A stretch of DNA of 64,000 nt from a virus (Duplodnaviria > Heunggongvirae > Uroviricota > Caudoviricetes), in IMG/VR virus record IMGVR_UViG_2526164631_000023, one strand, 5' to 3'. Under the pieces are notes generated by a model. The model was not told the DNA's origin. It saw only the letters and a list, made by a program, of their open reading frames with translations, and did no database searches. Below, piece after piece: positions 1 to 53,971 of this stretch. Within the stretch, counting starts at the first letter, position 1. Every line of letters begins with the position of its first letter. A program made the position numbers and the translations under genes.

Positions 1-860
1 TCCCAGCCTTCAACGTGCTTGTCGGTCACCAGCAGGTTCAGCTTACGCTTGGACATCACAGTGTATTCCAGATTCAGGCGCGAAAATTCGTACTGGCGCG
101 GGTGAACAGGAATGGTGATGTTGTCCAGTACCCAGTCATACAGACGACGGTTGTCCTGGAACTCAAGCGTACACAGAGAGTGCGTAATACCTTCCAGCGC
201 ATCGCTGATGCAGTGGGTGAAGTCGTACATCGGGTAGATGCACCACTTGTTGCCAGTCTGGTGATGTTCAGCAAACTTAATGCGGTACAGCACCGGGTCG
301 CGCATCACGATAAACGGCGAAGCCATGTCGATTTTCGCACGCAGGCAGGCTTTACCTTCTTCAAAACCACCGGCACGCATTTTTTCGAACAGCGCCAGGT
401 TCTCTTCAACGCTGCGGTCGCGGTACGGGCTGTTTTTACCCGGCTGCGTCAGGGTGCCGCGGTATTCGCGGATCTGTTCCGGCGTCAGTTCGTCAACATA
501 CGCCAGGCCTTTGTTGATCAGTTCAACAGCATAGGCATGGAGTTTGTCAAAATAATCGGAGGAGTAACGGATGTTGCCAGACCAGTGAAAACCTAACCAT
601 TCAACGTCGTTTTTAATCGACTCGACGTACTCGATATCTTCTTTTACCGGGTTAGTGTCGTCGAAACGCAGGTTGCACTGGCCTTTATAGTCCTGGGCGA
701 TCCCGAAGTTCAGGCAGATAGATTTCGCATGACCAATATGCAGATAGCCATTCGGTTCCGGCGGGAAACGGGTATGTACTGTGGTGTGCTTACCACTGGC
801 CAGATCTTCATCGATGATCTGACGAATAAAGTTAGTCGGGCGGGCTTCTGCCTCACTCAT
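1..860 (-). CDS. glnS: Glutaminyl-tRNA synthetase, N-terminal ~286 codons; gene continues beyond window start
   Basis: Reverse-strand translation from ATG (complement of 858-860) reads [47 protein letters not shown]... with class I HIGH motif; recognised from memory as enterobacterial GlnS. Absent from ORF track because there is no stop inside the window. Confidence 0.85.
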
Positions 861-1015
861 TGTGGATTCCTCAAAGCGTAAACAACGTATAACGGCGTAT
901 GATCTTATAAGCAGAATAGGCTGACAACCACTAGTTGGTTAGAAATTACTTTCTATAGTTGTTTCAATAATGAGCTTTTTCATCAAGCCCACTTCTGCTC
1001 ATAAGTAAACCAGTG

Positions 1016-1095
1016 CTAAATGGTACACAATTGGCACCAAAAAGGATGTAAAGGTGCACCAAATCGGTGCTACATTGGTACACCTTTGGTTCAAT
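1016..1095. repeat. Cluster of degenerate GGTRCA / GGYACC hexamer repeats between glnS start and the small partition gene
   Basis: tGGTACAcaattGGCACCaaaaaggatgtaaaGGTGCACCaaatcGGTGCtacattGGTACACCtttGGTTCa; related motifs recur upstream of parA (2086-2260) and at 5026-5046. Confidence 0.3.
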
Positions 1096-1128
1096 AATTT
1101 TTAAGTTCTAAAACCAACCTGAAAGACA

Positions 1129-1413
1129 TTATTTTGCTTCCTCAGACTCCGCTAACATGAGGATTGCATGCCGAATCAAGTTCAATTTGCTGCGGTTCAG
1201 TTTTTTGCTTAAATCATCGAGTACGCCGTACTCATATTCATTAAAGCTCACGCGTATGGATTTAAAGTCACGCGGCGCATCTTTATCTGGAGTTTGAGTT
1301 GCAGCCTCAACGCCCGGCACCAAATCGGCTTTAATGGCGAACTCTTCAATGCGGCGCTCTAGTTCAGGGTCTTTTACAGCTTGTGCATTCACTGGCTCAC
1401 GGCGCTTAATCAC
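1129..1413 (-). CDS. Small partition protein, ParG-like ribbon-helix-helix centromere-binding partner of ParA
   Basis: 94 aa, immediately downstream of and overlapping (4 bp) the ParA gene; C-terminal KSIRVSFNEYEYGVLDDLSKKLNRSKLNLIRHAILMLA resembles RHH fold. Confidence 0.55.
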   Translation of the reverse strand: MIKRREPVNAQAVKDPELERRIEEFAIKADLVPGVEAATQTPDKDAPRDFKSIRVSFNEYEYGVLDDLSKKLNRSKLNLIRHAILMLAESEEAK

Positions 1414-2042
1414 GATAACAACTCCTTAATCAACATCTGGATCTCGCCCTTTGCTTTCCCGTTGTCCATTTCAACAACCCCCTTCCCTTCTGCCATGCAG
1501 TCACGATAAATCTTACGGTCACGGACGACAGTTTTCAGGAGTTCAAGTTGCGGGTATTCAGCAAGATATTCCCTTGCCTCATTGGCTTCGTTAACGACCG
1601 GGTTGGATGGTGCCATAGTCAGCATGGCATACGCCTTAAGTTTAGGGTTGAAATCCATCGCCTCAGCTATAACCTCAACAAGGTGCGGTAGAGTATCCAG
1701 ATCCGGCTGGGAAGGACGGAACGGCACCAGAAGCACATCTGCCGCTGTCATGCCTGTACGCATCTCACGACTGTCGCGACCAGCAGTATCGACGACAACG
1801 TACTCGTAACGTTTATCCAGATCGAGCAGCGTCTCACGAATATTATCGAACTTCTGCACGCAGTGAATGACAGGGGCAACCTCACCTGCATTACGGTCTG
1901 ACGCCCATCGAGCTGCCGTTCCCTGCTTATCAGCATCAATCAAGACGACATCTTTGTTTTTTCGGGCCAGCTCGGCACAAATATTGACGCTGGTGGTTGA
2001 CTTGCCACAGCCTCCCTTTTGACTTGCTACCAGGATAATCAT
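1410..2042 (-). CDS. parA: ParA/ParF-family partition ATPase (small type Ib, 210 aa)
   Basis: N-terminal deviant Walker A MIILVASQKGGCGKSTT; size and operon arrangement typical of type Ib partition ATPases. Confidence 0.85.
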   Translation of the reverse strand: MIILVASQKGGCGKSTTSVNICAELARKNKDVVLIDADKQGTAARWASDRNAGEVAPVIHCVQKFDNIRETLLDLDKRYEYVVVDTAGRDSREMRTGMTAADVLLVPFRPSQPDLDTLPHLVEVIAEAMDFNPKLKAYAMLTMAPSNPVVNEANEAREYLAEYPQLELLKTVVRDRKIYRDCMAEGKGVVEMDNGKAKGEIQMLIKELLS

Positions 2043-2280
2043 GTCCGCACCTCGGCTTTATTACGGCTCTATTTTCACACTAAAACGGTACCGATTTAAC
2101 ACATCAACGGTACAGCAATAGCACCATTCTTAATGCCGGGAGTATAACATCAAATCAGATGGATGCTGGTACACGTTTTGCGCCTGAATAGCACTAAATT
2201 AGTACCAAATATATACCAGTACATTAACAACACCAATTCGGCGTTGTTTTGGTGCCACTTCAACACCATTTTGACACCAA
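2043..2280. promoter_or_regulatory. parA upstream region with repeated GGTAC / TGGTGCC motifs: probable promoter-operator and/or centromere
   Basis: ggtaccg, ggtacag, gctggtacacg, agtaccaaa, ccagtacatt, tggtgccac within 240 bp; type Ib centromeres usually lie upstream of the ATPase gene. Confidence 0.35.
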
Positions 2281-2288
2281 ATTTGAAC

Positions 2289-2313
2289 AAAAAAGGCTGC
2301 AATTTGCAGCCTT
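2289..2313 (-). terminator. Intrinsic terminator downstream of parR
   Basis: Perfect 9-bp stem aaggctgca/tgcagcctt with 3-nt loop; on the minus strand followed by TTTTGTT. Confidence 0.55.
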
Positions 2314-2331
2314 AAGATAGAGTATGAACCG

Positions 2332-2676
2332 TCAATCAGGTAGAGAGTCAGCCAGATTGCGCGCCGACGCGCTTTTGGCAACAACTTGCTCCTTCACTGG
2401 CTCAATGGAGGCAGGTCGCTCTTCAACCGCAGCAGGTAGTTCCAGGAAGGATGCCAGCATTTTTCGGATCAGCTCCGGGTTATTGTCTTCGGTCAGCAGG
2501 GAAGCCAGTAATCCTGGAAGCCTGCTATCGACTTCTCCCAGCGCAAGCCCTGCCAACAATGCAGTTCTTGCCATATCGCTATGTTTTTTTATCTTCTCGC
2601 TCGCCGCCTTTTCATTGGCATAAGCCTCTGGGCGAAGATAAATCATCACTTTCTTACGTTCCTGAGACATGGACAT
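2332..2676 (-). CDS. parR: ParR/StbB-like centromere-binding adaptor of the ParM system
   Basis: 114 aa directly downstream of parM; segment HSDMARTALLAGLALGEVDSRLPGLLASLLT resembles R1 ParR as remembered. Confidence 0.6.
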   Translation of the reverse strand: MSMSQERKKVMIYLRPEAYANEKAASEKIKKHSDMARTALLAGLALGEVDSRLPGLLASLLTEDNNPELIRKMLASFLELPAAVEERPASIEPVKEQVVAKSASARNLADSLPD

Positions 2677-2682
2677 ACCTCG

Positions 2683-3663
2683 TTAACCGATTGCTTTCAG
2701 GCCATGAACAAGAGCAAGTTGCGGGTCATCCGCCACGAAGAAACGGTCATCACGAATATTAACTTGCTCGCGAATTGCATCTGCCACCAGCGGTGCGCCA
2801 CCACCGATCACCATGACATGCGTATATCCTTTAAAGTCGCCAATCACATCAAGAACGCGGGTACGCAGACGGTCAATGCTTGCGGCAATGGCCTTTTTCA
2901 CATCACCAATCGCTGATGGGTCATTGATATTGTCGTTCAGATAATCTTCATCGTGGCGGTTAATAATGAGCTGATCAACATTGTAATTTGACGTTTCGGT
3001 ATTGGCTCTGGCAAGTGCTTGCCTTACTTCCCTGGTAACCAGAGAGACGCCAAGATTCGAATCGCCAAAAACACGGGAAACTGCCGTCATTTGCCCGGCG
3101 ACCATTGAAACATCAAGGGTAGTTCCACCCAAATCGACGATAAGAACAGAATGGGCAGGGTTCAGATTGTCGCACAGGCCAATTCCTGCCGGAATAGACT
3201 CCGGGCGTACCGTAACTTTCTTAATCGTGAACACATTGCCTTTATTCAGCGTGACGGGGCGCATAAGGCTGGCTTTCTTGCGCTCGATGTTATCGAGATT
3301 GTATTGCGCGTCGTCGTCGTAAAACTCCGCCAGAGGCAGCGTGACCACAATTTCTACTTCCTGCGGCTCAATGCCACTTGTCAGCAGGGCATGGTGAACA
3401 GCCAGGACGTTAAGCGGGCTGTATTGCCATTCCACGTTATTCGTCGGCAGAACATCTGGCGAGATCAAATCATACGAATACTTTTCGTCGTCAATGACAT
3501 AGTTAAACGGCTTGCCAGCACAAAATGTTGCTGACCATCCGCGCTTAAAGCTGTTAGGGCTGATGTGAGTGCGAGTTTCCCCGTCGTGCTCCCACAGCAT
3601 TTTGATATTGGTTGAACCATCATCGATAAAAATGCGCATCTTCTTGCTCCACTTCTGAGACAC
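2683..3663 (-). CDS. parM: ParM/StbA actin-like plasmid segregation ATPase (type II partition)
   Basis: MRIFIDDGSTNIK..HISPNSFKR..WQYS..NVLAVHHALLTSG..ESIPAG..DLGGTTLD..YGDSNLGVSLVT..THVMVIGGGA: actin-fold phosphate and adenosine motifs closely matching R1 ParM as remembered. Confidence 0.85.
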   Translation of the reverse strand: MSQKWSKKMRIFIDDGSTNIKMLWEHDGETRTHISPNSFKRGWSATFCAGKPFNYVIDDEKYSYDLISPDVLPTNNVEWQYSPLNVLAVHHALLTSGIEPQEVEIVVTLPLAEFYDDDAQYNLDNIERKKASLMRPVTLNKGNVFTIKKVTVRPESIPAGIGLCDNLNPAHSVLIVDLGGTTLDVSMVAGQMTAVSRVFGDSNLGVSLVTREVRQALARANTETSNYNVDQLIINRHDEDYLNDNINDPSAIGDVKKAIAASIDRLRTRVLDVIGDFKGYTHVMVIGGGAPLVADAIREQVNIRDDRFFVADDPQLALVHGLKAIG

Positions 3664-3825
3664 ATTTGAGAATCAAAATGCAATTTTAAAAGAGAAGCAC
3701 CCAAAAATCCACACCAAAAGAGATAAAAAAGAGTGATTATTGAGTTCATTTTGAGAATATCTTAATCACCCAATGAATGATGGTCTGACAGTGAGATTTA
3801 TTTGAGAATGAATTGAGAATACAAA
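3664..3825. repeat. parC-like centromere: iterated TTGAGAAT repeats upstream of parM
   Basis: TTGAGAAT at 3666, 3751, 3802 and 3813 plus a degenerate copy near 3740, in AT-rich DNA immediately upstream of parM. Confidence 0.45.
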
Positions 3826-3905
3826 AATATTCCGAAATTTAACTCTCAGTTTGAATGACGAAATAACAAAGTGATGACAATAGGAGGATAACCAGGAGGT
3901 GAAGA

Positions 3906-4190
3906 ATGAGCGCAATAGCCACCAGCGACACCCTTTGTTCTGGTCACGGAGGATTTCCGCCGCGACTGGTAGCTGAAACTGTTCCCTGGTTCACCGTTAA
4001 CGGTAAGCCAATTGTTGTAGATGGTGCCATGTTTCCCAGTCACACTGACGGTAACAGTGCACATCCAGGGGCAGCTGTATCGACGCGAGTATGGTTTTCG
4101 ATAGGTGGAAAGGGAGTTGTCTGTGTAGGCGATCCGCTTTCTTGTGGTTCTGTTATCGCCAACGGCGAGGATATTTTTCAGGTTGCATAA
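3906..4190 (+). CDS. PAAR-like domain protein (spike-tip type)
   Basis: 94 aa with CSGHGG, VNGKPIVVDG, IGGKGVVCVGDPLSCGS repeats typical of PAAR domains; good SD aggagg upstream. Confidence 0.5.
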   Translation: MSAIATSDTLCSGHGGFPPRLVAETVPWFTVNGKPIVVDGAMFPSHTDGNSAHPGAAVSTRVWFSIGGKGVVCVGDPLSCGSVIANGEDIFQVA

Positions 4191-4993
4191 TGCTTGATTC
4201 AATAGGTGAAGTTAAAGCCTTCAAAATTCTGTCAGATGCCGGTATCTCTACACCAGAATCTATAACCATAAGCCGGGCAGCGTCTGTAAAAGCCTCATCA
4301 CTCGCCAGCGCCATACAGGGAATAGTTCACGCCGATAAAACCTATCCTGATTCTGTTTCGGCCTGGACTACTCAATTGCTTGGCTTTTCTGAACAGCTAA
4401 ATGAGGCCAGCAAAGCGTCTTCATTACTGGCTGATTCTCTTTCCCCATACACCAAGCCATCAGAGCTGTTACAGATGAAGATTGGCTGGGAATGCTACGT
4501 AAAAGGTAACGAGCTGACCCCCATACCTGCTTTCGCCCTTGTTGAGGGGATGGGGAATGTTTCCATTCCGCAATCTCTAACGGACGCATTGACGGCGCTA
4601 AAACTTGATGCTCTGAAAACCGCCATGAACGCCATTAACGCAAAAATAGAAGCTGCTGGAAGTGCTGGTGGTGATAGCAATGGTGGACAGGGTGGTGCTG
4701 GGGGCGCTCAGGCTCCAGTCATTACTCAGGATGAAATTGAAGCTTTACGGGAAGCAGTGACAGCCGCCGAAGTTTTACTCTCCGAAATTAACTCAGCAAG
4801 TGAGAGTGTCGTAGCCCTTACAGGTCGCATTAAAACGTCAACCACTCAGGCAACCAAAGGTTTAGAGAACGCTGTCGCCATCACGTTAACTGGTTCTCTA
4901 CTGGATGATGCAGTAATGAGTCCGGCAATCAGTTTAATCATGCCACAAGGCGTTATCGATGCGCTCCAAAAGAACACCAAAAAGGAACCATAG
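4190..4993 (+). CDS. Hypothetical protein with Gly-rich linker, translationally coupled to the PAAR gene
   Basis: ATG overlaps the PAAR stop (TAATG at 4188-4192); 267 aa; GSAGGDSNGGQGGAGGAQAP linker; the track start at 4091 is an upstream alternative. Confidence 0.45.
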   Translation: MLDSIGEVKAFKILSDAGISTPESITISRAASVKASSLASAIQGIVHADKTYPDSVSAWTTQLLGFSEQLNEASKASSLLADSLSPYTKPSELLQMKIGWECYVKGNELTPIPAFALVEGMGNVSIPQSLTDALTALKLDALKTAMNAINAKIEAAGSAGGDSNGGQGGAGGAQAPVITQDEIEALREAVTAAEVLLSEINSASESVVALTGRIKTSTTQATKGLENAVAITLTGSLLDDAVMSPAISLIMPQGVIDALQKNTKKEP

Positions 4994-5018
4994 CAACACC
5001 ACTTAGGAACACAAAAGG

Positions 5019-5522
5019 ATGCGAATTGGTACATGTTTAACACCAAAAATGAACCTGGAGAGGATGGTTTTGAAAAAGATAATTTTGATTGTAATTGCGC
5101 TTTTAGCCATTTCTGGAATTTACCGAACAACGACGGCAGTTATCGAACACATCAGGTATGTCCGATCGCTTGAAGACTCAAAATCACAACTGGAAAGCAC
5201 GAACAACACGCTTTCTACCGCATTACAGTTAAGTGAGAACGCTCGCTCAGCCATGCTGACCGAAAACGAAAGAATTAAAGCACTGGAAAAGGAGTACCAG
5301 CGCAAAACAGCAGAACTGAATGCCAACCTAATCAAACAACGAGAGGAAAGCCAGAATGAAATCACTCGCCTTGAAAATGCGTTGCGCCGTGCTGGGATTA
5401 ACGATGTGCGTGTGCCTGATGACGTTATCAGGATGCAGCGGGAACGGGCAAAAGCCATCAACCAGCGTGCCAGTGAAAATTACCGTAGAAGCCACCAGCA
5501 AGCCGCAGGCAAATCTGATTGA
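5019..5522 (+). CDS. i-spanin (Rz-like): N-terminal membrane anchor plus periplasmic coiled coil
   Basis: Hydrophobic KKIILIVIALLAISGIY followed by charged heptad-rich region; true start may be an internal ATG (5049 or 5064). Confidence 0.5.
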   Translation: MRIGTCLTPKMNLERMVLKKIILIVIALLAISGIYRTTTAVIEHIRYVRSLEDSKSQLESTNNTLSTALQLSENARSAMLTENERIKALEKEYQRKTAELNANLIKQREESQNEITRLENALRRAGINDVRVPDDVIRMQRERAKAINQRASENYRRSHQQAAGKSD

Positions 5523-5688
5523 TTACTCCCCTTGTTTAGTGCCAGAAGACACGCCAGTGCTGTTAAACAAGTATCCGACATACGCTGAACAGTTATTCAG
5601 CACGATCGACGAATGCAACCAACGAAACGCACTGAATAACCAAAGAAACAGGGAGATTTGGGAAGGGAAGGGGGATCAAGGCTCCTGA
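5356..5688 (+). CDS. o-spanin (Rz1-like) outer-membrane lipoprotein, out of frame within and beyond the i-spanin 3' end
   Basis: Signal peptide with lipobox LMTLSGC; SD gaggaaag 8 nt upstream of ATG; overlaps 5356-5522 of the i-spanin gene in another frame. Confidence 0.5.
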   Translation: MKSLALKMRCAVLGLTMCVCLMTLSGCSGNGQKPSTSVPVKITVEATSKPQANLIDYSPCLVPEDTPVLLNKYPTYAEQLFSTIDECNQRNALNNQRNREIWEGKGDQGS

Positions 5689-6134
5689 AGCCAGATGTCC
5701 TGGCTGTCAGCTTCTTCGAAACCGTGACAGACGTTAAAGTCACTCAAACGATACTGACGCTGACGGCCCCTATTTCGCTCATGCCAATGCATATATCCAC
5801 CAGCAAATGCCAGCGGACAATCGCTATAGTCTATGTAACCAATACCATTCCCCAAACGTGCTTCGCGCGCACCAGCTTTCCAGGACAGTAGAAAAGAGTC
5901 ACGATCCGCCAGCATAACAACAAAATCGTCCGGATCTCCGATACAGTGAAGAATACCTGCCTTACATAACTGCTTGAGCGCTTTTGACTGGCTCAGGATG
6001 TCTTCTCCGTAATACTGAAAACAATCATCAACAACAGCGGGATAGCCTGTCGGGGGATTCAGGCTGGTTGGTATAGCTGACGCGATCGCCAGCATTAAGC
6101 GATATTGTGTTTTTGATGGGTTGACGTGACTCAT
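5676..6134 (-). CDS. Hypothetical protein (152 aa, Cys/His-rich)
   Basis: ORF only; second gene of a leftward two-gene unit downstream of operator-like site at 6557. Confidence 0.3.
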   Translation of the reverse strand: MSHVNPSKTQYRLMLAIASAIPTSLNPPTGYPAVVDDCFQYYGEDILSQSKALKQLCKAGILHCIGDPDDFVVMLADRDSFLLSWKAGAREARLGNGIGYIDYSDCPLAFAGGYMHWHERNRGRQRQYRLSDFNVCHGFEEADSQDIWLQEP

Positions 6135-6150
6135 TTTGTCCCTTGTTTAC

Positions 6151-6543
6151 TCATTGTCGCCATGCATTTTTTAACTCAGGAATATCTGCCATTTCAATTA
6201 ACTTGCGAAGTCCAGCACTGACTTTCCCATTGCCAACCATAGCAAGCCAATCTCTTACAGCTTTCGGCATGTAGAGCGTTGCAGTTACCGGCTCTTCAAC
6301 CCTGGCAGGACATCCGCATACAGGCCATTTAATTGATTCCATAACTTCGGATGCCGGGGTGAGGGCGGGGACATTGAGTATATCTCTACCAGAAAACTGG
6401 ATAACGATCCGTTCAGCGAGCGAGAGTATCTCACTTTCGGCAAGAATTGATGCCAACTGCGCCTCAACAAGAAAGCGACTTGTTGTGTTCAGAGAGTGGC
6501 TCTTAGCGCCATTTTTATACGAAACAAAGATTCGATACGCCAT
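6151..6543 (-). CDS. Hypothetical protein (130 aa)
   Basis: ORF only; first gene of the leftward unit; operator-like motif just upstream of its start. Confidence 0.3.
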   Translation of the reverse strand: MAYRIFVSYKNGAKSHSLNTTSRFLVEAQLASILAESEILSLAERIVIQFSGRDILNVPALTPASEVMESIKWPVCGCPARVEEPVTATLYMPKAVRDWLAMVGNGKVSAGLRKLIEMADIPELKNAWRQ

Positions 6544-6556
6544 AACTCTAATGATT

Positions 6557-6575
6557 TGTGTTAGAAAACTAAAAT
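6557..6575 (+). promoter_or_regulatory. Operator-like motif copy a (TGTGTTAGAAAACTAAAAT)
   Basis: Member of a dispersed family of asymmetric ~19-bp sites, consensus tGTGTTAGAAA(a/t)(c/t)TAA(a/t)T. Confidence 0.45.
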
Positions 6576-6701
6576 TAAATCACATAACAACATGAGTGTT
6601 AATATATTTTATTTTACTAAACCTATTGACTAAATCACAAAGTAGGTATTGTTAGCCCGTCAAAAGAACCTTCACGCCGCGCCCGAATTTAGGGCTTAAC
6701 C

Positions 6702-8399
6702 GTGAATAAAAACATTCAGCCAGCTCGTGATCGCGAGCGCGAGATTATGAATCGGGCGGCAAGCGTCATGGCTATGACCGTCGATCCGACCACCGATGCA
6801 GCAGGCAACATGATTGCTGACCAGGCAGTAATGATGGAAAACCTGGATAAAGCAATCCAGAAAGTGCCTATGTTTGAAGGCGTAAATCCAGAGGTCGCTC
6901 GTCAGATCACTGGTGGGTGGGCTATGTCTCTGCATGAGTATAAACGTCAACATGGTCATTACCCGGCAAGTGACATCCTGGCGAACGCACACATGGCTCT
7001 TGAGCGCCTGATGACTGAATGTGCCAGTGATACCCATGAAGGCACGGGTAAGGCAATGTTTGAGTCTGTCGCGCAATCAATGCGTAGCTCTGACGGCGTA
7101 ATGAAAGTTGCTCAATATGCTGCTCTAATTCTGCCTGCCTCTCTGGGCGCTGCTACCAGTGATGCCTGTACTTTTGTTCCTTGTGATCGTGACGAGTCAA
7201 ATATTTATGAACTGGTCAACGTAGCAGGCACAAAATTCGGCACCTTCAACCAAGGTGACGAACTGAATATGCAGTCAGCTGGTGTTTATTCTCAAATGAA
7301 GCGCCTGTATGCCCTTTCCACTAAAGGGGATGGCAGCACCAAAACCTTCCAGTTCAACATCCAAAATTTTGAGGGACAATCCTGCCCGCTTCGCGCTGGT
7401 TATAACAAACTGCTGATCAACCGCAAACCGTCCAAAGTTGACGACGGCGATGGCAACCTTTATTTCAATGCTAAAGACAGCAAAGGTAATGCTTTCTCAG
7501 CGACTGCCAAAGTTGCCTATGACACTGGTGTCATTGACATTACATTTACCCAGGCTCCGCCAGAAGGTACTGAAATTGCTGTTCAGGTCGAAATTAACAT
7601 CGAGCGCAATCCAAGCCTGATTCCGGTGATCAACCAGGCTATGCGTAAGTACGAAGTTCGTCCGTCCCAGTACGTACTTGCTTCCGAACACACGGTAATG
7701 TCCGCATCCGATTTAAGCCGTGAGCACGGCCTTGAATTAGCGGCACTTCAGTTCTCCGCGATGCGCAACTGGATCTCCCATGAAACCGACATCATGCGTC
7801 TGCGCACCCTGGTATTCCATACCGTTTATGGTCGTGAATTTGATGTGGCTCTGCCGGAAGCTCAAAACTATGAGTCCTGGGTCGGTCTCCTGCGTCACGT
7901 AGTAAACGCTCTGTCTCAAGAAATGGCAAATCGTACCCTGACAACGGGTATTCGTGGCGGCTTTGCTGGTAGTGACGCCGCGAACTTCCTGCGCTCTCTG
8001 CCTCCACAGCACTTCCAGATCGCACCAGGTTACGTTCAGTCGCCGTATGTACAGTACATCGGCACCCTGTTTGGCACGATTCGTATTTACGAAGTGCCGC
8101 AACCTGTCTGTGAGCAATTCCAGGCACAGGGATATGACTTCGGGCTGGATGACATCTTCTTCTATGGGCGTGGCGAAGGCATCGGTAAAGCCGGTCTGAT
8201 TGCTGGTGATGCAGTCCCAGCAATCCCTTACGTTCACGAAACCAATCCGTCTCTCGTTAACCGTACCACTCTCTGGGGCAGTGCCATCAACGAAGTACAT
8301 CCTCGCAACGGTGAAAACTACTTCACCCGCCTGCGTCTGACTCGTGCCAAAGAAGGTGCTATCGACATGCTGACAGGCAAGGTTAACGAAAAAAAGTGA
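6702..8399 (+). CDS. Virion structural protein, candidate major head protein (565 aa)
   Basis: Large ORF opening the structural block; size close to the P1 major head protein as remembered; assignment by size and context only. Confidence 0.35.
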   Translation: MNKNIQPARDREREIMNRAASVMAMTVDPTTDAAGNMIADQAVMMENLDKAIQKVPMFEGVNPEVARQITGGWAMSLHEYKRQHGHYPASDILANAHMALERLMTECASDTHEGTGKAMFESVAQSMRSSDGVMKVAQYAALILPASLGAATSDACTFVPCDRDESNIYELVNVAGTKFGTFNQGDELNMQSAGVYSQMKRLYALSTKGDGSTKTFQFNIQNFEGQSCPLRAGYNKLLINRKPSKVDDGDGNLYFNAKDSKGNAFSATAKVAYDTGVIDITFTQAPPEGTEIAVQVEINIERNPSLIPVINQAMRKYEVRPSQYVLASEHTVMSASDLSREHGLELAALQFSAMRNWISHETDIMRLRTLVFHTVYGREFDVALPEAQNYESWVGLLRHVVNALSQEMANRTLTTGIRGGFAGSDAANFLRSLPPQHFQIAPGYVQSPYVQYIGTLFGTIRIYEVPQPVCEQFQAQGYDFGLDDIFFYGRGEGIGKAGLIAGDAVPAIPYVHETNPSLVNRTTLWGSAINEVHPRNGENYFTRLRLTRAKEGAIDMLTGKVNEKK

Positions 8400-8544
8400 T
8401 GGTGGCGAACGTGTCGGTATCACCAACGTCACTTGACGTAGATGAAGGTGAAACTATCGCCGCGAACACTTCAAAGGCACAGAAAAAACAAAGCAGAAGT
8501 AAGGCAAAAACACGCCCCTGATTAAGGGGCGTTCAGGAGAAAAA

Positions 8545-8823
8545 ATGGCAAACATTCAAGTAACTATCACGCCATCTGACGCAACAGACAAATCTTTCAC
8601 TGTTGAGTCAGATCACCCTGATATTGTCCGGGTTGATGGCACTACATGTACCGCTCTTAAGGTCGGGCAGGCAGTGCTGACAATCAAAACAAATGACGGC
8701 AATAAAACCGCACAGTGCACAGTCACTGTTAGGGAGGCACATAAAAGCGTAAGCACCGTCAGTGTTGAACCAACTACGAAAGAAGTTACCGTAGGCGATA
8801 ACTTCACGGTAAGCCAATCCTGA
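8545..8823 (+). CDS. Bacterial Ig-like (Big_2-type) domain protein, probable virion decoration
   Basis: 92 aa with beta-rich ITPSDAT..FTV..DIVRVDGTT.TALKVGQAVLTIKT..GNKTAQCTVTV pattern typical of phage Ig-like domains. Confidence 0.5.
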   Translation: MANIQVTITPSDATDKSFTVESDHPDIVRVDGTTCTALKVGQAVLTIKTNDGNKTAQCTVTVREAHKSVSTVSVEPTTKEVTVGDNFTVSQS

Positions 8824-8890
8824 TCAGAGGCTGCCCATTAACCGTGGGTAGCCTTGCCTCGTTCTCTCGCTTTAGAGGATAAGAACCAGC

Positions 8891-10549
8891 ATGAATAAGA
8901 TTAGTTTTTCGGTAGGGCAGGCAGCTGGCGTTGCTGTAATGTCAGTAAATGCTGACGCTACCCTCACCAATACCAGCGGTGGCGCATCCGTCTTTGCTGG
9001 GCTTGTAATATCGCGTCGTGGCGCACCGGGTAAGGTACTGAAAGTTGACGATACGACTTATCAAAGCGTATTAGGTTCACCGATTCACCCTCGCCAGGGC
9101 GCGGCATTTGAACCATATCGCCACGTGGAGCGTGCAGTAAAAGGCGGCTCTGGATATGTCGTTCGAGTTTGCGCTAAAGACATGAAGGTGCCGGGTATTT
9201 CTGTTTCCGTTGTGGGCAAAGCAAAAGCGGCAAAGGCGAGCAAAGAACTTTCCGTTGAACCTACTGAAACCACAGTAAATCCAGGTGACACATTAAGCGT
9301 TGGTGTTGCTTCAACTGCAACGACTCAATCAGTGACCTTCACACCCAAAGAGACGCCCCAGATTAAAGGTGGAGAGAAGGCATTATTCTTCATCAAAGAT
9401 GGTGATGCATCTCAAAATCGCACGTTATCACTAACTCGCGATGATGAAGAAAGCGAACTCTTTACGCTGACGCTGAAAGAAAAACAAACCGATGGGTCCA
9501 TTGAGGTGCTGGAAAGCCACCAAGTGTCTTTCAATCCAGAAGGCACCAACGACATGGGCCAACCAGCATGGATTCCGACACTGCTTGAAAGCCAGTCCTC
9601 TCGCATTGGTGCCGTACTGGCAGATAATGCAGAAGCATCCGCTGCTCAACTCATTTTTGAGGATGTAGCTTTTGAAGGTGGTACTGATGGAAATCTGTCC
9701 GAAATTAACGCTGCAGACTATCTGGAAGCATTAAAGGTTCTCGAAGCTTCAGAGGTTAATTACACCGCATTGCTGTCATTGGGTTGTTATGACGCATCCG
9801 CCTTAGCCGCAATCAAAAAGCTGGCTGAAGATGTTCGCGTAGACATGTTCTATGACCTGAAGGGCAACCAGACACCTGAAAACGCTATTTCAGAAGCGAA
9901 AAGCCATAGTTTTGGCGGCTCACATCAACCAAGCCGTTACTACTTCCCGCTCTCCTGCCGAGATACCTTCACTGGGATGAATGTCGTCTATGGCATTAGT
10001 TGCGACGCATTCGTAGCAAAAGCAAAAGGGGTAGCGCTGGTACCGGATGTTGGTGGTTGGCATTACGCACCGGCAGGTATATCACGCGCGATTATTGATC
10101 GACAGAACATTGCCCGAATTCCAAATATCGGTGCAGTTGATCGTGAAGCGTTCGTTCTTGCGCGCATTAATCCGGTTTCAGTTGCTGCTGATGGGTCCGT
10201 TTACATTGACGACTCTTTAACAACTTACAGCAAAAACAACTATCTGCGATTCCAGCATGTGTCTTCCTTGATGAACGCCATCGCCAGAGATTTCTATGAA
10301 GTAGCTCAGGCGATTAAGCACGAACCGGATGGCATTACCAAAGAAACGCTAATGAAAGCAATGACTGAATTGCTTGACCGTTACGTTGCAGCCGGTGCGC
10401 TGGTTACTCCACGTGACAAGTCCCAGGGTGAAGATCCATACGTTGTTCAGGTTGTCCAAAAGGACATCGATCTGTGGGAAGTGTCCTGGTCTGTTTGTCC
10501 GACCGGTACAGCTCGCCGAATCGTCGGTAAGCCAATTCTGATGCGCTGA
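8891..10549 (+). CDS. Candidate tail sheath protein (552 aa)
   Basis: Size and position beside candidate tube gene; C-terminal ARINPVSV..SVYIDDS segment sheath-like; unverified. Confidence 0.35.
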   Translation: MNKISFSVGQAAGVAVMSVNADATLTNTSGGASVFAGLVISRRGAPGKVLKVDDTTYQSVLGSPIHPRQGAAFEPYRHVERAVKGGSGYVVRVCAKDMKVPGISVSVVGKAKAAKASKELSVEPTETTVNPGDTLSVGVASTATTQSVTFTPKETPQIKGGEKALFFIKDGDASQNRTLSLTRDDEESELFTLTLKEKQTDGSIEVLESHQVSFNPEGTNDMGQPAWIPTLLESQSSRIGAVLADNAEASAAQLIFEDVAFEGGTDGNLSEINAADYLEALKVLEASEVNYTALLSLGCYDASALAAIKKLAEDVRVDMFYDLKGNQTPENAISEAKSHSFGGSHQPSRYYFPLSCRDTFTGMNVVYGISCDAFVAKAKGVALVPDVGGWHYAPAGISRAIIDRQNIARIPNIGAVDREAFVLARINPVSVAADGSVYIDDSLTTYSKNNYLRFQHVSSLMNAIARDFYEVAQAIKHEPDGITKETLMKAMTELLDRYVAAGALVTPRDKSQGEDPYVVQVVQKDIDLWEVSWSVCPTGTARRIVGKPILMR

Positions 10550-14028: not shown

Positions 14029-14892
14029 TTAATCTGTTGGTTTAAGTTTCGGATTCCGAGAGTGAACGATAATGAAGTTTTCACGACCTTGCTTTTCAAT
14101 GGTGCAATCGAGATAACCTATTGTTTTTAACTGGTCTATAGCTTTTTTTATCGTTCTGTTTTGCTCACTTACCGATGACATCAAGGCTAATCTTTCACGT
14201 ATTCTGGCAAATGAAATAGGTATTGGACGTGCCGGGAGGCTTTCTATAAAGGTATATATGGCCTGGGCTGCTTCTTTTTTAGGTAAAGCGCGAAGTGCGT
14301 GTTGCTGTAGAAGCACCCGATAGTCTAGCTGGAAGATTTCCCATAACTTGGAATCAGCCTCCAGTTCAACGACATCTGTTTCAAAGTCAAAATATCCCGT
14401 TTTAAGCAGGCCAGTATTGTAGCTTCCACGAGCACTTTTCCCTCTTTTGAATGAGATGCCTTTGTTGCGTAACCGACCTAAAGAATCGTGGATCGTGTTT
14501 CTTAATTTCCCATCAAGTCGCTTAGATGGAAATCCGCACGCCTTTGCAAATTCTTGAAAAGAAAGGCGAATTGTATTCGATGATAAGCCATACTTGCTAA
14601 ATGAGTAGATTACCCCAATCCAGACTTTGAAATCAGTATCCATGTCCAAGCGAGGGCCAGTGATCTTGATGTTGTCGTAGCCTTCTGCTTGAGCTATTTC
14701 CAATTTGGAAAAAACAGATGATGCATCTATCTCGTTGTTTTCACCCTGTTTTTTAGTTGGTTTAGGGACGAAAACACCAAGCCGCATAAGTGCGACAGGT
14801 TGAACAGTATTGTTCGAATTAACTGTTAATTCTTTAGCCTTGCTTTCAATGTCAGCATAAAGAATATCAGAGATAAATGACTTATCCATCAA
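14029..14892 (-). CDS. repA: Plasmid replication initiator RepA (P1 R-replicon type)
   Basis: 287 aa beginning MMDKSFISDILYADIESKAKELTVNSNNTVQPVALMRLGVFVP, closely matching P1 RepA as remembered; flanked by cognate iterons. Confidence 0.85.
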   Translation of the reverse strand: MMDKSFISDILYADIESKAKELTVNSNNTVQPVALMRLGVFVPKPTKKQGENNEIDASSVFSKLEIAQAEGYDNIKITGPRLDMDTDFKVWIGVIYSFSKYGLSSNTIRLSFQEFAKACGFPSKRLDGKLRNTIHDSLGRLRNKGISFKRGKSARGSYNTGLLKTGYFDFETDVVELEADSKLWEIFQLDYRVLLQQHALRALPKKEAAQAIYTFIESLPARPIPISFARIRERLALMSSVSEQNRTIKKAIDQLKTIGYLDCTIEKQGRENFIIVHSRNPKLKPTD

Positions 14893-23153: not shown

Positions 23154-26100
23154 TTATGGGTGCTGATAAAACGAACAACATAATGACACTATCCTCTGGT
23201 GTCTCACAGCCGTTGCTTGCTGATGTTCAATATTTCGAACTCTATAGTAGTTCGGCTCTTAACAGAAAACTTAAAAATATTGTTTTGCCGGGCTTTTACT
23301 GTGGATTTGAACCAGTTCCCGGCGCAGGGTTGAGAGTCCGTATAACTTCTGAAAACTCAGAAGGTAAAGGGGCTGCTTCAGTAGATGTAAATAATGTTCA
23401 GATATCCGTTCAGCAAATAGAAGATGTGACTGTCTCGGTAAAGGCTGGGGCTACCAACATTATTGTGCTAGAAGCCAATTTTGAACATGGTGTAAAAACG
23501 ACACAGGTAGAGAGCGCATCTTCTGTCAGTGCTGCAAGAATTTACGCGCGTACGGACAATACTATTGGGCAGAATCAAATTGAATTATGTCGAGTTATCG
23601 TGCCTAACGGCGCAACGGCTGTGACGAAAGAAATGATTGTGCTTAAATACCGGGTTAACCGTGCTGTTGGTGTCGAATTCTCTAATGAAATAAGCAGTAC
23701 AGAAGAAAGAAAAGCGGCTACACCTCTGGCTGTCAAAACTCTCCATGATTTGGTTGATACAAAAGCTCCGCTCGATAGTCCACATCTGTCAGGTACGCCG
23801 ACAGCACCTACGGCCTCACAAGGCACAAATAGCACGCAGATTGCAAATACAGCCTTTGTTAAGGCAGCTATAACTGCACTTATCAACGGTGCACCTGGCA
23901 CACTGGATACGCTGAAAGAAATAGCGGCTGCGATCAATAACGACCCGAATTTCAGCACAACTATCAACAATGCCCTGGCTCTCAAAGCGCCTTTGGCAAG
24001 CCCGGCGTTCACAGGTACGCCGACAGCACCTACGGCCTCACAAGGCACAAATAGCACGCAGATTGCTACGACCGCTTATGTAAGAGCTGCCATATCCGCA
24101 TTGGTTGGTTCATCACCAGAAGCTCTTGATACCCTGAATGAGCTTGCCGCAGCACTTGGTAATGACCCGAACTTTGCGACAACAATGACAAATGCGCTGG
24201 CAGGCAAACAGCCTCTGGATGCAACTTTAACCGCTCTTGCTTCCCTTGCGACTGGTGCAAACAAACTGCCTTATTTCACGGGTAAGGATACGGTAGCTCA
24301 GACTGATTTAACGTCAGTCGGTCGCGATATTCTGGCTAAAACAAGCATACTGGCCGTTATCCAATACCTTGGTTTAAGAGAACTCGGTACCAGCGGTGAA
24401 AAGATCCCCCTGTTAAGCACAGCTAACACATGGAGTGCGCGCCAGACTTTCAACGGCGGGATCACCGGGGCGCTGACAGGGAACGCCGACACCGCGACGA
24501 AATTGAAAACCAAAAGGTCGCTTCAAGTTGACCTCCAAAGTGATAACGCCATCGACTTTGATGGTTCATCAAATGCTCTTCTGGGCATAAAAGGTATTTT
24601 ACCAATTACTCATGGGGGATTAGGTGCATCCAGCGTCTCTGGAGGGCGTACTAATCTTGGATTAGGTGTTGCGGACGTCCCCCAATTTAAGGGTATCAAT
24701 CTTGTTAACTCAACAGACGCTGATTTAGCCGCGTCAGGGATTGTAAGTGGTTATCTGAATAATTCAGCTGGGGTACAGAGGAGTCGTTTCAGAATTTATT
24801 CAGAGATAAGGAGTGGCAACCGCTCATGGCTGACGTTACATCTACAATCTGATACCAACACCAATAAATATGCCGGATTAGACATTGACGGTAACTTTCT
24901 GATTACCGGAGATAGCAAATGCCGAGCATTAGAACCAACTGATGCAGCGTTAACAAGAAAAAATATTGATGTTTACAGCAAAGCCGAAGTAGACCTTAAA
25001 AAAGGGATGAAATTCACCAGAGTCAATGCTCCTTCTGGAGCTGAAGAGGGTAAATTCTATCCTGTAGTCATCAAGAGATCTGCAACGAGCAATGGTGAAC
25101 TTGCTTCTCGGGTTATTATTTCCACTGCGTCGCGCCAAGCTGCACATCGCATGAACAACTGCGAATTCAATGGTTTTGTGATGCCTGCTGGTTGGAGTGA
25201 CAGAGGGCGGTACGCATACGGGATGTTCTGGCAATATCAGGATGCAGAACGGGCGATTCATTCTATTGCGATGAGCAATAAAGACGATGAAGTTAGCTCA
25301 GTTTTTTATATTGAAGGCGGAGCATTTCCAGTATGCGTTCTTGTGGAGGAGGGGCTTTCTGTTGTTGTCCCTACAACGGATTATATTGTTGGACAAACCA
25401 CATACAAATGGGGGGCTACCAACCCTAAAGCTGAATGTATAGCTGCCGACATAATTATTGATTTTAGCAATGGTCGTGGTTTCTATAGCTCTGGAAACCT
25501 CAATGGTAATGCTGCAACAGCAACTAAATTACAGACCGCCAGAACAATCAACGGAGTAACCTTCGATGGCACTACTGATATTTCGTTGACACCAGAGAAC
25601 ATTGGCGCGCTGTCTCTATCCGGAGGCACATTATTAGGAGGTCTGACAGCTCCATTACTTACCACTAAAAGCGATCTTATTTTTAGTAGCCATACAAGCC
25701 GTCATATCCGCTTTACATATACGAAAAATGACGGCACAACACTAACTGATGGGTACATATTTAAAGATGGCGTCGATAACCCTAACAGACGACCAGGCAT
25801 CCGGATAAATTGTGCTGCGCCGAATAAAGAAACCGGCAATGGTACTAATTCAGGTGATTGGATATTCGGTGAAGATGGCATTTTTACCATGCCGGGTGGC
25901 ACTGTTCTTCGGGGAGGAATCAATAGCAATGGCGTGCCGCAAAGTGAGTATAAACATGACATGCTCACGTCAGTTGTTGACGATGCAAAAATGTATCTGC
26001 GACGTTTCCGCTCCAGCACAGGTGCAAGCATATGGCATGAAACAATAGAGAATAATGTTTATCGCTTATGCACAGGAACAACTGACGCTCAGGAAGAGTT

Positions 26101-27475
26101 AGTCTTGAGGACTGGTTCCTATGCGAAATTCGCTGGCGAGATTATTTCCAAATCGGCGAATGGTCTGCGCATTGTCTATGGCAACTATGGATTCTTTATC
26201 CGAAACGATGGTTCAAGCACATACTTCATGTTGACCGATTCGGGTAACAGCCTAGGAACCTATAATAGGTTAAGGCCGCTTATCATTAACAATGCCAATG
26301 GTGCTGTTACGATCGGTAATGGACTCAATGTTACTGGCGGCATCAATGGTAGTTTGAACGGTAATGCTGCAACTGCAACAAAACTGCAAACAGCACGCAC
26401 AATAGGCGGTGTGTCATTCGATGGCTCCGCCAATATCAACCTGCCGGGTGTAAACATTGCTGGTAACCAGAACACAACCGGTAATGCAGCGACAGCGACC
26501 AAGTTGCAGACAGCATGTACTATCAACGGCGTCTCGTTTGATGGTTCTAAAGATATTGAACTTAACCCACGGTCTATAGGCACGATCAACTCCACAACAA
26601 TGTCTTTTAGTGGTGGTGCTGGATGGTTCAAGCTAGCAACTGTAACCATGCCACAGGCCAGTTCCGTGGTTTACATAAGCCTGATTGGTGGTGCAGGGTA
26701 TAACGTTGGCTCCCCGCATCAAGCAGGCATCTCTGAGCTGGTTCTGCGTGCCGGAAATGGAAATCCAAAAGGTATTACTGGTGCATTATGGCGACGGACC
26801 TCGGTTGGATTTACTAATTTTGCATGGGTGAATACATCTGGTGATACCTATGATGTTTATGTTGAAATAGGTAATTACGCCACAGGTGTTAATATTCAGT
26901 GGGATTATACCAGTAACGCCAGCGTAACGATTCATACATCACCAACTTATACAGCGAATAAACCAACAGGCCTGACAGATGGAACTGTATATGTAATTTA
27001 CAGTTCGCACATTAAACCGACTGCTGCTGATGTTGGGGCGTTGTCATTATCTGGAGGTCAATTGAATGGTGCACTGGGCATCGGAACATCCAGTGCTCTT
27101 GGCGGTAACTCGATTGTTTTGGGTGATAATGACACGGGCTTTAAACAAAATGGCGACGGTAATCTGGACGTTTATGCTAATAACGTCCATGTTATGCGCT
27201 TTGTCTCCGGCAGCATTCAAAGTAATAAAACCATAAATATTACAGGGCGTGTTAACCCCTCGGATTACGGTAACTTTGATTCCCGTTATGTGAAAGATGT
27301 TCGCCTGGGTACGCGTGTTGTTCAATTGATGGCGCGTGGTGGTCGTTATGAAAAAGCCGGACACGCAATTACCGGATTAAGAATCATTGGTGAAGTAGAT
27401 GGCGATGATGAAGCCATCTTCAGACCAATACAAAAATACATCAATGGCACATGGTATAACGTCGCACAGGTGTAA
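23150..27475 (+). CDS. Tail fibre protein S: constant N-terminal part fused to the currently expressed variable C-terminal cassette
   Basis: 1441 aa with repeated GNAATATKLQTARTI(N/G)GV(S/T)FDGS motifs and C-terminal ..INGTWYN; shares internal segments with reverse-strand cassette. Confidence 0.8.
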   Translation: MIMGADKTNNIMTLSSGVSQPLLADVQYFELYSSSALNRKLKNIVLPGFYCGFEPVPGAGLRVRITSENSEGKGAASVDVNNVQISVQQIEDVTVSVKAGATNIIVLEANFEHGVKTTQVESASSVSAARIYARTDNTIGQNQIELCRVIVPNGATAVTKEMIVLKYRVNRAVGVEFSNEISSTEERKAATPLAVKTLHDLVDTKAPLDSPHLSGTPTAPTASQGTNSTQIANTAFVKAAITALINGAPGTLDTLKEIAAAINNDPNFSTTINNALALKAPLASPAFTGTPTAPTASQGTNSTQIATTAYVRAAISALVGSSPEALDTLNELAAALGNDPNFATTMTNALAGKQPLDATLTALASLATGANKLPYFTGKDTVAQTDLTSVGRDILAKTSILAVIQYLGLRELGTSGEKIPLLSTANTWSARQTFNGGITGALTGNADTATKLKTKRSLQVDLQSDNAIDFDGSSNALLGIKGILPITHGGLGASSVSGGRTNLGLGVADVPQFKGINLVNSTDADLAASGIVSGYLNNSAGVQRSRFRIYSEIRSGNRSWLTLHLQSDTNTNKYAGLDIDGNFLITGDSKCRALEPTDAALTRKNIDVYSKAEVDLKKGMKFTRVNAPSGAEEGKFYPVVIKRSATSNGELASRVIISTASRQAAHRMNNCEFNGFVMPAGWSDRGRYAYGMFWQYQDAERAIHSIAMSNKDDEVSSVFYIEGGAFPVCVLVEEGLSVVVPTTDYIVGQTTYKWGATNPKAECIAADIIIDFSNGRGFYSSGNLNGNAATATKLQTARTINGVTFDGTTDISLTPENIGALSLSGGTLLGGLTAPLLTTKSDLIFSSHTSRHIRFTYTKNDGTTLTDGYIFKDGVDNPNRRPGIRINCAAPNKETGNGTNSGDWIFGEDGIFTMPGGTVLRGGINSNGVPQSEYKHDMLTSVVDDAKMYLRRFRSSTGASIWHETIENNVYRLCTGTTDAQEELVLRTGSYAKFAGEIISKSANGLRIVYGNYGFFIRNDGSSTYFMLTDSGNSLGTYNRLRPLIINNANGAVTIGNGLNVTGGINGSLNGNAATATKLQTARTIGGVSFDGSANINLPGVNIAGNQNTTGNAATATKLQTACTINGVSFDGSKDIELNPRSIGTINSTTMSFSGGAGWFKLATVTMPQASSVVYISLIGGAGYNVGSPHQAGISELVLRAGNGNPKGITGALWRRTSVGFTNFAWVNTSGDTYDVYVEIGNYATGVNIQWDYTSNASVTIHTSPTYTANKPTGLTDGTVYVIYSSHIKPTAADVGALSLSGGQLNGALGIGTSSALGGNSIVLGDNDTGFKQNGDGNLDVYANNVHVMRFVSGSIQSNKTINITGRVNPSDYGNFDSRYVKDVRLGTRVVQLMARGGRYEKAGHAITGLRIIGEVDGDDEAIFRPIQKYINGTWYNVAQV
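24357..24382. other. gix/cix-like 26-bp recombinase crossover site (site A), in frame inside the fibre gene
   Basis: TTATCCAATACC TT GGTTTAAGAGAA matches remembered Gin-site TTATCCAAAACCTCGGTTTACAGGAA at ~20/26; encodes VIQYLGLRE. Confidence 0.5.
26132..26365. repeat. 234-bp inverted repeat, copy 1 (inside S), ~98% identical to reverse complement of 29167-29400
   Basis: Both copies encode EIISKSANGLRIVYGNYGFFIRNDGSSTYFMLTDSGNSLGTYNRLRPLIINNANGAVTIGNGLNVTGGINGSLNGNA. Confidence 0.8.
26196..26221. other. Candidate crossover site B inside the inverted repeat
   Basis: TTATCCGAAACG AT GGTTCAAGCACA; left half fits Hin-family half-site; inverted copy at 29310-29335. Confidence 0.3.
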
Positions 27476-27478
27476 ATT

Positions 27479-28006: not shown

Positions 28007-28010
28007 AAAT

Positions 28011-28030
28011 TAAGGCCCGATAGCGGGCCT
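28011..28030. terminator. Bidirectional hairpin between convergent U and U' genes
   Basis: aaggcccgatagcgggcctt: 7-bp stem aggcccg/cgggcct. Confidence 0.45.
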
Positions 28031-28034
28031 TCTC

Positions 28035-28568: not shown

Positions 28569-28570
28569 CG

Positions 28571-30241: not shown

Positions 30242-30265
30242 TGTATTAATGTTGGTTTAAGAGAA
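30240..30265. other. Second gix/cix-like site (site C), same orientation as site A
   Basis: AATGTATTAATG TT GGTTTAAGAGAA; right half and next ~130 bp identical to site A flank. Confidence 0.4.
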
Positions 30266-53874: not shown

Positions 53875-53879
53875 AATTT

Positions 53880-53967: not shown

Positions 53968-53971
53968 AATT

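Follow-up and report, generated by a model that had tools for sequence, protein, structure and literature searches.

Predicted tandem type II and type Ib partition systems in a D6-like phage-plasmid

The region described here is probably a double par locus in tandem arrangement, carried by a D6-like plasmid prophage and composed of a type II and a type Ib partition system. We find parM, parR, parA, and a small partner gene together on the minus strand of the window (the whole 64-kb stretch of DNA that was analyzed). The original prediction was that two complete partition systems of different types lie in tandem. This is borne out by domain and structure matches, cis repeats, and intact genes, which identify a type II ParMRC system and a type Ib ParA with a predicted ribbon-helix-helix (RHH) partner. 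The open reading frames sit where the prediction placed them, and all are read from the minus strand; better starts are 2670 for parR and 3639 for parM.

The two operons had been described as adjoining. They are tandem neighbors, but they do not strictly abut: 289 bp lie between them, and this interval contains an intrinsic terminator as well as a separate promoter/operator. The terminator is kept in D6 and in an Escherichia marmotae relative. The range first proposed for the locus (1129-3825) also leaves out a second cluster of ParA-side sites. An Rfam search of positions 800-4000 returned no RNA family.

Table 1. Predicted features of the double par locus (window coordinates)
Feature	Position	Strand	Basis or detail
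parC-like centromere/operator and promoter region, type II	3640-3825	-	Iterons, candidate promoter
ATTCTCAA iterons (minus-strand reading)	3813-3820, 3802-3809, 3791-3798 (AATCTCAC), 3751-3758, 3666-3673	-	
Degenerate iteron	3655-3662	-	3 mismatches
Candidate sigma-70 promoter of parMR	TTAAGA 3765-3760, 18 nt, AATAAT 3741-3736	-	One iteron in spacer
parM, actin-like segregation ATPase, 318 aa	2683-3639	-	PF06406, PF21523, R1 ParM
parR (StbB), predicted centromere-binding adaptor, 112 aa	2332-2670	-	PF10784, 2jd3, phrog_8671
Intrinsic terminator of parMR operon	2293-2313	-	9-bp stem, then TTTTTTGTT
Upstream cis region, parC1-like, type Ib	2080-2285	-	~11 GGTRC/RYACC(AAA) sites at multiples of ~11 bp
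Extended -10 promoter of parA operon (TGTTATACT)	2149-2141	-	Flanked/overlapped by sites
parA, small deviant-Walker-A ATPase (KGGCGKS), 210 aa	1410-2042	-	ParF 4dzz, NF041546, phrog_164
Partner, ParG/ParB-like, 94 aa	1129-1413	-	Gene pair with parA, weak RHH evidence
Downstream cis cluster, parC2-like, type Ib	1010-1095	-	7 GGTRC-type sites, 9-20 bp apart, mostly ~11 bp

Element identity and conservation of both loci

The element belongs to the D6-like (P1-g2) phage-plasmids and shares 99.97% identity with NZ_CP066033.1. In a set of 5,426 complete E. coli genomes, such elements account for 77 plasmid records. The gene set, its order, and its position between upfC and glnS/dmt are shared with orf58-61 of phage D6 and with other P1-g2 elements. 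In the closest fully annotated relative, a RepB replicon lies ~10 kb from the par loci. In the D6 GenBank record (MF356679), three of the four genes are already labelled (StbA, StbB, and a "possible ParA"), and orf61 is listed only as hypothetical. In the papers examined, we found no functional study of this element or of D6.

The contrast drawn in the original prediction with the single type Ia ParA/ParB system of P1 stands because the element is a D6-like phage-plasmid and not P1. By gene annotation, the 99.97%-identical plasmid, the closest fully annotated relative, has no P1-type (large, type Ia) ParA or ParB. The double locus would account for the inheritance of D6-like phage-plasmids without P1 parABS.

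None of the four genes is disrupted, and each shows purifying selection (dN/dS 0.02-0.08 where computable); the inactivating lesions that had been named as grounds for refuting the prediction are absent. For parA compared with D6, dN is 0.085 and synonymous sites are saturated. The two loci occur together in ~118 D6-like plasmids, and the E. marmotae relative has the same tandem order even though nucleotide identity in its parM drops to 81%.

These data bear on whether only one of the systems contributes to stability, the other being a dispensable passenger. SCP1 offers a precedent, as it carries two par systems of which one matters under laboratory conditions. In addition, parA is frameshifted in one relative (NZ_CP031917.1), which may reflect a pseudogene or an assembly error, and the ParA cassette appears exchangeable between otherwise identical backbones. 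However, a dispensable locus should have decayed in some lineages, whereas here both loci are intact, strongly constrained, and co-retained across the D6-like plasmids and the more distant E. marmotae relative. We therefore regard a passenger system as rather improbable.

The type II system

The type II system resembles R1 ParMRC, the prototype of its class. ParM matches PF06406 (7e-69), PF21523 (4e-55), and, along its entire length, R1 ParM structures (E=2e-110), and it keeps the phosphate-binding motifs DDGSTNIK and DLGGTTLD and the adenosine-binding motif IGGGA. The mechanically called frame opens at a GTG at 3663; we prefer the downstream ATG, which corresponds to R1 ParM residue 1 and to the RefSeq and D6 annotations. 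The gene is 99% identical to D6 orf58 (dN/dS 0.02).

The parR gene lies directly 3' of parM after a gap of 12 nt, within an open reading frame spanning 2332-2676. Its product matches the StbB/ParR family PF10784 (Plasmid_stab_B, 3.5e-11) and phrog_8671, annotated 'partition protein' (9e-60), and is detectably related to the pB171 ParR structure 2jd3 (E=1e-6). It is 99% identical to D6 orf59; its sequence similarity to R1 ParR is only remote.

A set of iterons precedes parM. Four of the five exact copies of TTGAGAAT in the window, counting both strands, fall on one strand within 155 bp (3666-3820). Successive iterons are spaced by 11, 11, 40, 85, and 11 bp, so that two gaps are of 11 bp, or three if the degenerate copy is counted. 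A promoter-like site lies among the iterons, as in R1. R1 parC has ten iterons, whereas ~5-6 copies of a different sequence are recognizable here. This cis region is 97% identical to that of D6, and related xTCTCA or AACCTCA iterons occur 5' of parM in the E. marmotae and Proteus relatives. Judged by its sequence, the operon belongs to type II, having a ParM with nucleotide-binding motifs, a downstream ParR, and upstream phased iterons around a putative promoter. The parM leader also holds RYACCAAA-like sites at 3696-3718.

The type Ib system and its candidate cis sites

ParA is a ParF-like ATPase that lacks an N-terminal DNA-binding domain. It aligns end to end (residues 4-209) with TP228 ParF (4dzz, 206 aa; 7e-19) and matches phrog_164, 'ParA-like partition protein' (9e-56). 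It also matches NF041546 across residues 2-207 (1e-48), with a score of 165 bits that falls just under the 180-bit cut-off. There are more than 1000 homologues; the best 120 listed are 67-100% identical, and many are on gammaproteobacterial plasmids.

The partner, whose GTG start overlaps the parA stop by 4 nt (GTGA), looks like an RHH protein. The sequence and model evidence for this is individually weak but convergent. Searches of Pfam and NCBIfam with the partner gave no match, and nothing was found when its sequence was compared with the PDB. Residues 47-93 have weak Arc-like and CopG profile matches (best PHROG E=0.002), and members of the partner family match RHH Pfam families. An AF2 model has a strand-helix-helix C-terminus, and a Foldseek search with it retrieved mostly RHH proteins with ParG first, none of them significant (best E=0.78). 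A profile of 74 partner sequences found RHH proteins in the PDB only at E ~0.1 (best 0.08). A 10-sequence profile matched only RF2, which we judged spurious.

From N- to C-terminus, the partner comprises a basic tip (MIKRR), a conserved helix at residues 16-28, a linker, and a predicted RHH domain at residues ~50-93. This predicted layout, in which an RHH domain comes after a flexible basic N-terminus, is that of TP228 ParG, although no sequence similarity between the two proteins is detectable. Within Escherichia, tblastn (E<=1e-3) matches the partner only in D6-like plasmids; a close relationship to pB171 ParB is therefore improbable. The genes annotated as hypothetical, D6 orf61 and its relatives, likely encode centromere-binding adaptors.

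Candidate binding sites flank the operon on both sides. The original prediction gave each operon its own repeat array, and there are indeed real, non-random repeats at each. The ParA-side repeats, however, are short degenerate sites and not a tidy tandem array, which leaves each single site uncertain. Among the 100-bp bins of the window, GGTRC/GYACC is most frequent in 1021-1120 (6 sites) and 2081-2180 (5 sites), against an average of 0.34 per 100 bp. The bins that rank next (~10.0 kb and ~23.8 kb) fall within coding sequence and tail-fibre repeats and were therefore discounted as additional centromeres. The upstream sites overlap the putative parA promoter, which was identified by reading the sequence and not by a consensus scan; this promoter island persists in D6, although the sequence around it cannot be aligned. 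A ~200-aa ATPase without an N-terminal regulatory domain, preceded by repeats that overlap its inferred promoter, points to type Ib.

The sites are conserved across the wider family. The GGTRC/RYACCAAA motif is found on the flanks of homologous operons from four other genera, and the parA-partner gene pair is kept in Serratia, Aeromonas, Rahnella, and Arsenophonus plasmids. An unbiased 5-mer count over the flanks of six homologous ParA-partner operons ranked GCACC, ACCAA, and GGTAC at the top (6.7-7.7 fold). Among the four distant relatives alone, GGTAC was the top 5-mer (6.3 fold) and was present in all four. We predict that small ParA systems of this family, carried by gammaproteobacterial plasmids, share this binding motif.

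The downstream cluster lies past the end of the chromosomal glnS homology (~947), and its position raises the question of whether the ParA/RHH pair is a regulatory or positioning module (e.g., for glnS or late genes), with the GGTRC clusters acting as transcriptional operators only. glnS follows on the same strand 145-230 bp downstream of the cluster, and no strong terminator separates the two. Furthermore, the paper on the Salmonella plasmid pYU39_89 lists 'cop, parA, stbB and parM', in which cop (copy-number control) may correspond to the partner. An equivalent cluster is nevertheless found in distant relatives and, together with the operon, in the E. marmotae relative, which has no glnS; we therefore rejected a glnS operator as the main explanation. 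In Aeromonas, Rahnella, and Arsenophonus, the homologous pair sits on unrelated plasmids, no more than ~1-1.5 kb from a replication-initiator gene, with the motif on both flanks and no ParMR beside it within the stretch shown. PADLOC gave no match beyond the P-loop and no defence system. A purely regulatory role is thus very unlikely.

The least probable reading is that the repeats reflect chance or base composition and that the real centromeres are elsewhere. The sites, 5-8 bp long, are indeed short and degenerate, and a loose GKYACCAAA scan with 2 mismatches had no window-wide excess (an uninformative result), but the densest bins of the 64 kb sit exactly on both operon flanks, the exact type II repeats are clustered on one strand, and the motif recurs independently in distant relatives.

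Proposed partition mechanism, known systems, and cassette divergence

Two partition systems would operate side by side at the locus. In the type II system, ParR dimers would bind the ATTCTCAA iterons 5' of parM to form a partition complex. This complex is expected to repress the promoter embedded among the iterons and to capture the ends of ATP-bound ParM filaments, whose growth would push sister plasmids apart. Transcription of the type Ib locus would start at a dedicated extended -10 promoter located past the parR terminator. The partner's predicted RHH domain would bind the GGTRC/RYACCAAA sites upstream of parA and downstream of the operon. Autoregulation is expected, since the upstream sites overlap the parA promoter. 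The partner's basic N-terminal tail may then stimulate the ATPase of nucleoid-bound ParA dimers, leading to even plasmid spacing along the nucleoid. The analysis establishes the identity and integrity of the genes, the constraint on them, and the repeats with their conservation across the family; DNA binding by each adaptor, autoregulation, and any effect on stability are inferred. Relative to the type Ib prototype TP228 ParF/ParG/parH, the differences are the motif and the presence of sites on both sides of the operon.

A close known counterpart is the double par locus of the E. coli virulence plasmid pB171, in which par1 is a type II ParM/ParR system and par2 is a type Ib ParA/ParB system with parC1 and parC2. 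Both loci place an actin-type system next to a small-ParA system with an RHH adaptor (predicted, in the present element) on one replicon, with cis sites 5' and 3' of the type Ib operon. The pB171 operons are reportedly divergent and share a common central parC1, whereas those described here follow one another on a single strand, divided by a terminator, and each has a repeat family of its own upstream. The host elements also differ, being a virulence plasmid in the case of pB171 and a phage-plasmid here. By analogy with pB171, the type II and type Ib systems might be cross-regulated, possibly through the RYACCAAA-like sites in the parM leader.

Type I-RHH and type II systems co-occur on 971 PLSDB plasmids, with pB171 as the prototype. 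Because the combination is known from pB171, the present locus is a well-built but ordinary example. Dual systems of both types are well documented, and our understanding of partition mechanisms is unchanged. The tandem arrangement is possibly new, as is the presence of an anciently diverged ParA cassette inside a near-identical backbone.

The divergence of this cassette is sharp. Compared with D6, ParA is 85% and the partner 76% identical, and the region upstream of parA is largely unalignable. At the nucleotide level, the ParA cassette (~900-2330) is 52-86% identical within a backbone that is 98-100% identical. The cassette is an anciently diverged allele relative to that of D6, and this sharp divergence in a near-identical backbone makes it a candidate incompatibility or exchange module. 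It is conceivable, if on balance unlikely, that in D6-like phage-plasmids the near-invariant ParMRC is a fixed core and the type Ib cassette (defined as ParA, the N-terminal half of the partner, and the promoter/operator) is an exchangeable module, perhaps with cross-regulation between the two. If so, recombinational swapping of the cassette could allow escape from par-mediated incompatibility with co-resident relatives or provide a fit to different hosts.

Two adjacent partition loci of different types

The window carries two partition systems in tandem. Four open reading frames on the minus strand form a type II locus, parM and parR, and a type Ib locus, parA and a gene for a 94-aa partner protein. 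This is the arrangement that the original prediction proposed for 1129-3825, and its claim that each system has its own repeats also holds. We consider it probable that this double locus functions in partition. The original prediction had named an inactivating lesion as one finding that would count against it; as far as sequence can tell, neither system has one, and a check of the four partition genes found no lesions.

Features of the partition region and of the element, in window positions; dS and dN are relative to phage D6
Feature	Position	Strand	Description	dS	dN
parM	2683-3639	minus	best start ATG 3639; 318 aa; two ParM Pfam domains; R1 ParM structures at E=2e-110, full length	0.11	0.003
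parR	2332-2670	minus	best start 2670; 112 aa; PF10784; pB171 ParR structure 2jd3 at 1e-6	0.05	0.004
parA	1410-2042	minus	210 aa; KGGCGKS; residues 4-209 align to TP228 ParF (206 aa)	saturated (pS 0.80)	0.085
partner gene	1129-1413	minus	94 aa	1.7	0.13
TTGAGAAT repeats	3666-3820		upstream of parM		
RYACCAAA-like sites	3696-3718		GCACCCAAAAA and ACACCAAAAG		
terminator	2313-2293		9-bp stem, 3' of parR		
upstream peak	2081-2180		5 GGTRC/GYACC sites		
extended -10 element	2149-2141		TGTTATACT		
downstream peak	1021-1120		6 GGTRC/GYACC sites		
downstream cluster	1010-1095		outside the range of the original prediction		
glnS	1-947	minus	95-96% identity to the E. coli chromosomal gene		
initiator gene	14030-14890		RepB family		
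C4 region	40477-40683		C4 antisense RNA and a1/b1 target elements (Rfam)		
tRNA cluster	53799-55093		Arg-TCT, Tyr-GTA, Thr-TGT, Ser-TGA, Met-CAT		

What this analysis adds is modest: a proposed role for a hypothetical partner protein, a predicted family-wide motif on both flanks of its operon, and divergence at the level of the cassette. [quoted passage not shown] The combination itself is already known. What defines the pB171 locus is that a type II and a type Ib system lie next to each other, and a 2026 survey found type I-RHH (ribbon-helix-helix) together with type II systems on 971 PLSDB plasmids.

Substitution patterns relative to phage D6 (MF356679) indicate purifying selection on all four partition genes, and the nucleotide-binding motifs of ParM are intact. 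With a cut-off of 90% identity, ParM occurs in 118 plasmid records; the partner is present in 119 records of Escherichia, Salmonella and Shigella. A divergent E. marmotae element keeps both loci in the same tandem order.

The type II repeats are concentrated upstream of parM. The 64 kb contain five exact TTGAGAAT copies (both strands counted), and four of these lie there, all on one strand; with degenerate copies included, the spacings are 11, 11, 40, 85 and 11 bp. One copy falls inside the spacer of a promoter-like site. In an E. marmotae relative, parM is preceded by xTCTCA iterons, some of them spaced by about 11 bp, and a Proteus relative (ParR 43% identical) has AACCTCA copies at 11-bp spacing. 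Two RYACCAAA-like sites also lie between the promoter-like site and the parM start. These could mediate cross-regulation as in pB171, but two such sites may be chance.

The ParA partner and its candidate binding sites

ParA is small and type Ib-style. The NCBIfam ParA_partition model matches it end to end (165 bits, below the cut-off of 180). The parA stop overlaps the GTG start of the partner gene (GTGA), with an AAGGAG box upstream. In tblastn searches, the partner gene immediately follows a ParA gene in D6-like plasmids as well as in plasmids of Serratia, Aeromonas, Rahnella and Arsenophonus. In the last three genera, a replication-initiator gene lies within about 1-1.5 kb of the pair, and the surrounding stretch examined has no annotated ParMR.

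Weak but convergent evidence suggests that the partner is a ParG/ParB-type ribbon-helix-helix adaptor. Alone, it has no match in Pfam, NCBIfam or the PDB by sequence search. Its AlphaFold model comprises an extended segment and two helices (59-72 and 76-93; pLDDT 73-88), and Foldseek returned mostly ribbon-helix-helix proteins with ParG at the top, none of them significant. An exhaustive HMMER search gave 125 cluster representatives, nearly all small proteins. Among 74 members scanned, the matches were to NikA-like (14), RHH_1 (8) and RHH_7, TacA or TraY models, all ribbon-helix-helix families. Residues 47-93 weakly match the PHROG Arc-like profile and, with the family profile, CopG and HP0222 in the PDB. 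In the alignment, an invariant basic tip at the N-terminus (M-x-K-x-R) and a conserved helix are joined by a variable linker to a C-terminal block that is again conserved (KxIRVxFNxxExxxLxxLxxKxxRSKLNxIRxA). Indirect comparison revealed no close similarity between this family and pB171 ParB.

The ParA operon is flanked by the two highest GGTRC/GYACC densities of the whole window (mean 0.34 per 100 bp), and of the window's 14 RYACCAAA matches, seven lie within 1034-3718. When 5-mers were counted without bias in the flanking regions of six homologous operons, GCACC, ACCAA and GGTAC ranked highest; with only the four distant relatives included, GGTAC led (6.3-fold, 4/4 loci). Across genera, ParA is 67-74% identical and the partner 46-58%, yet the GGTAC-type motif persists. 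Since it recurs across homologous operons, the motif is a family property, as a conserved ribbon-helix-helix recognition strand would predict. The upstream sites flank and overlap the extended -10 element, a conserved island relative to D6 in an otherwise unalignable stretch, which suggests autoregulation.

The downstream cluster does not belong to the captured chromosomal glnS segment, since homology to chromosomal glnS ends at about 928-947, short of the cluster. A D6-like plasmid of E. marmotae without glnS has an equivalent cluster. On these grounds the cluster is best read as a candidate second site like parC2 of pB171, and a glnS operator is disfavoured. The glnS gene, which encodes glutaminyl-tRNA synthetase, directly follows the ParA operon and shares its strand; the glnS start codon ends at 866, and no strong terminator separates it from the partner gene. 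D6 also carries glnS (orf62).

A divergent cassette in a D6-like element

The type Ib cassette is far more divergent than its surroundings. Positions 1-9000 are 98-100% identical to D6 except for about 900-2330 (52-86%), exactly the cassette and both site clusters. Given the saturation at synonymous sites, the cassette is an old allele placed by recombination in a conserved backbone, not a product of recent diversification. Partner alleles in D6-like plasmids form at least three classes (about 99%, about 81% and 72-79% identity). Partition genes are reported to be frequently exchanged between phage-plasmids and plasmids, by which, the authors of that report suggested, incompatibility may be avoided. 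The divergence and allele classes fit such exchange, although they do not prove incompatibility avoidance.

The contrast with P1 drawn in the original prediction was correct, and is explained by the element being D6-like. E. coli plasmid NZ_CP066033.1 is 99.97% identical to the window, and its annotated genes include no P1-type ParA or ParB. The window has a RepB-family initiator, about 10 kb from the partition loci. D6 is 89% identical across the partition region. Pfeifer & Rocha chose NZ_CP066033 and D6 as the two representatives of P1-g2, a subgroup of the P1-like phage-plasmids, and the separation of partition genes from the replicon has already been noted for this subgroup. The D6 GenBank record lists StbA (orf58), StbB (orf59) and a “possible ParA partitioning function” (orf60), and a paper on a Salmonella D6-like plasmid groups “cop, parA, stbB and parM” into a single partition system.

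The window lacks one IS100 that in NZ_CP066033.1 is flanked by a gene for a head protein and a hypothetical gene (window 34008-34012), and its tail-fibre segment (about 24360-30560) is rearranged or inverted relative to that plasmid. In another D6-like plasmid, NZ_CP031917.1, parM is annotated shorter (918 nt) and parA has a frameshift downstream of its LLDAD motif (about 2010-2700 of that record), which may be real decay to a pseudogene or an assembly error. Elsewhere, the window carries a cluster of five tRNA genes and a C4 region that corresponds to the P1-type immI immunity region.
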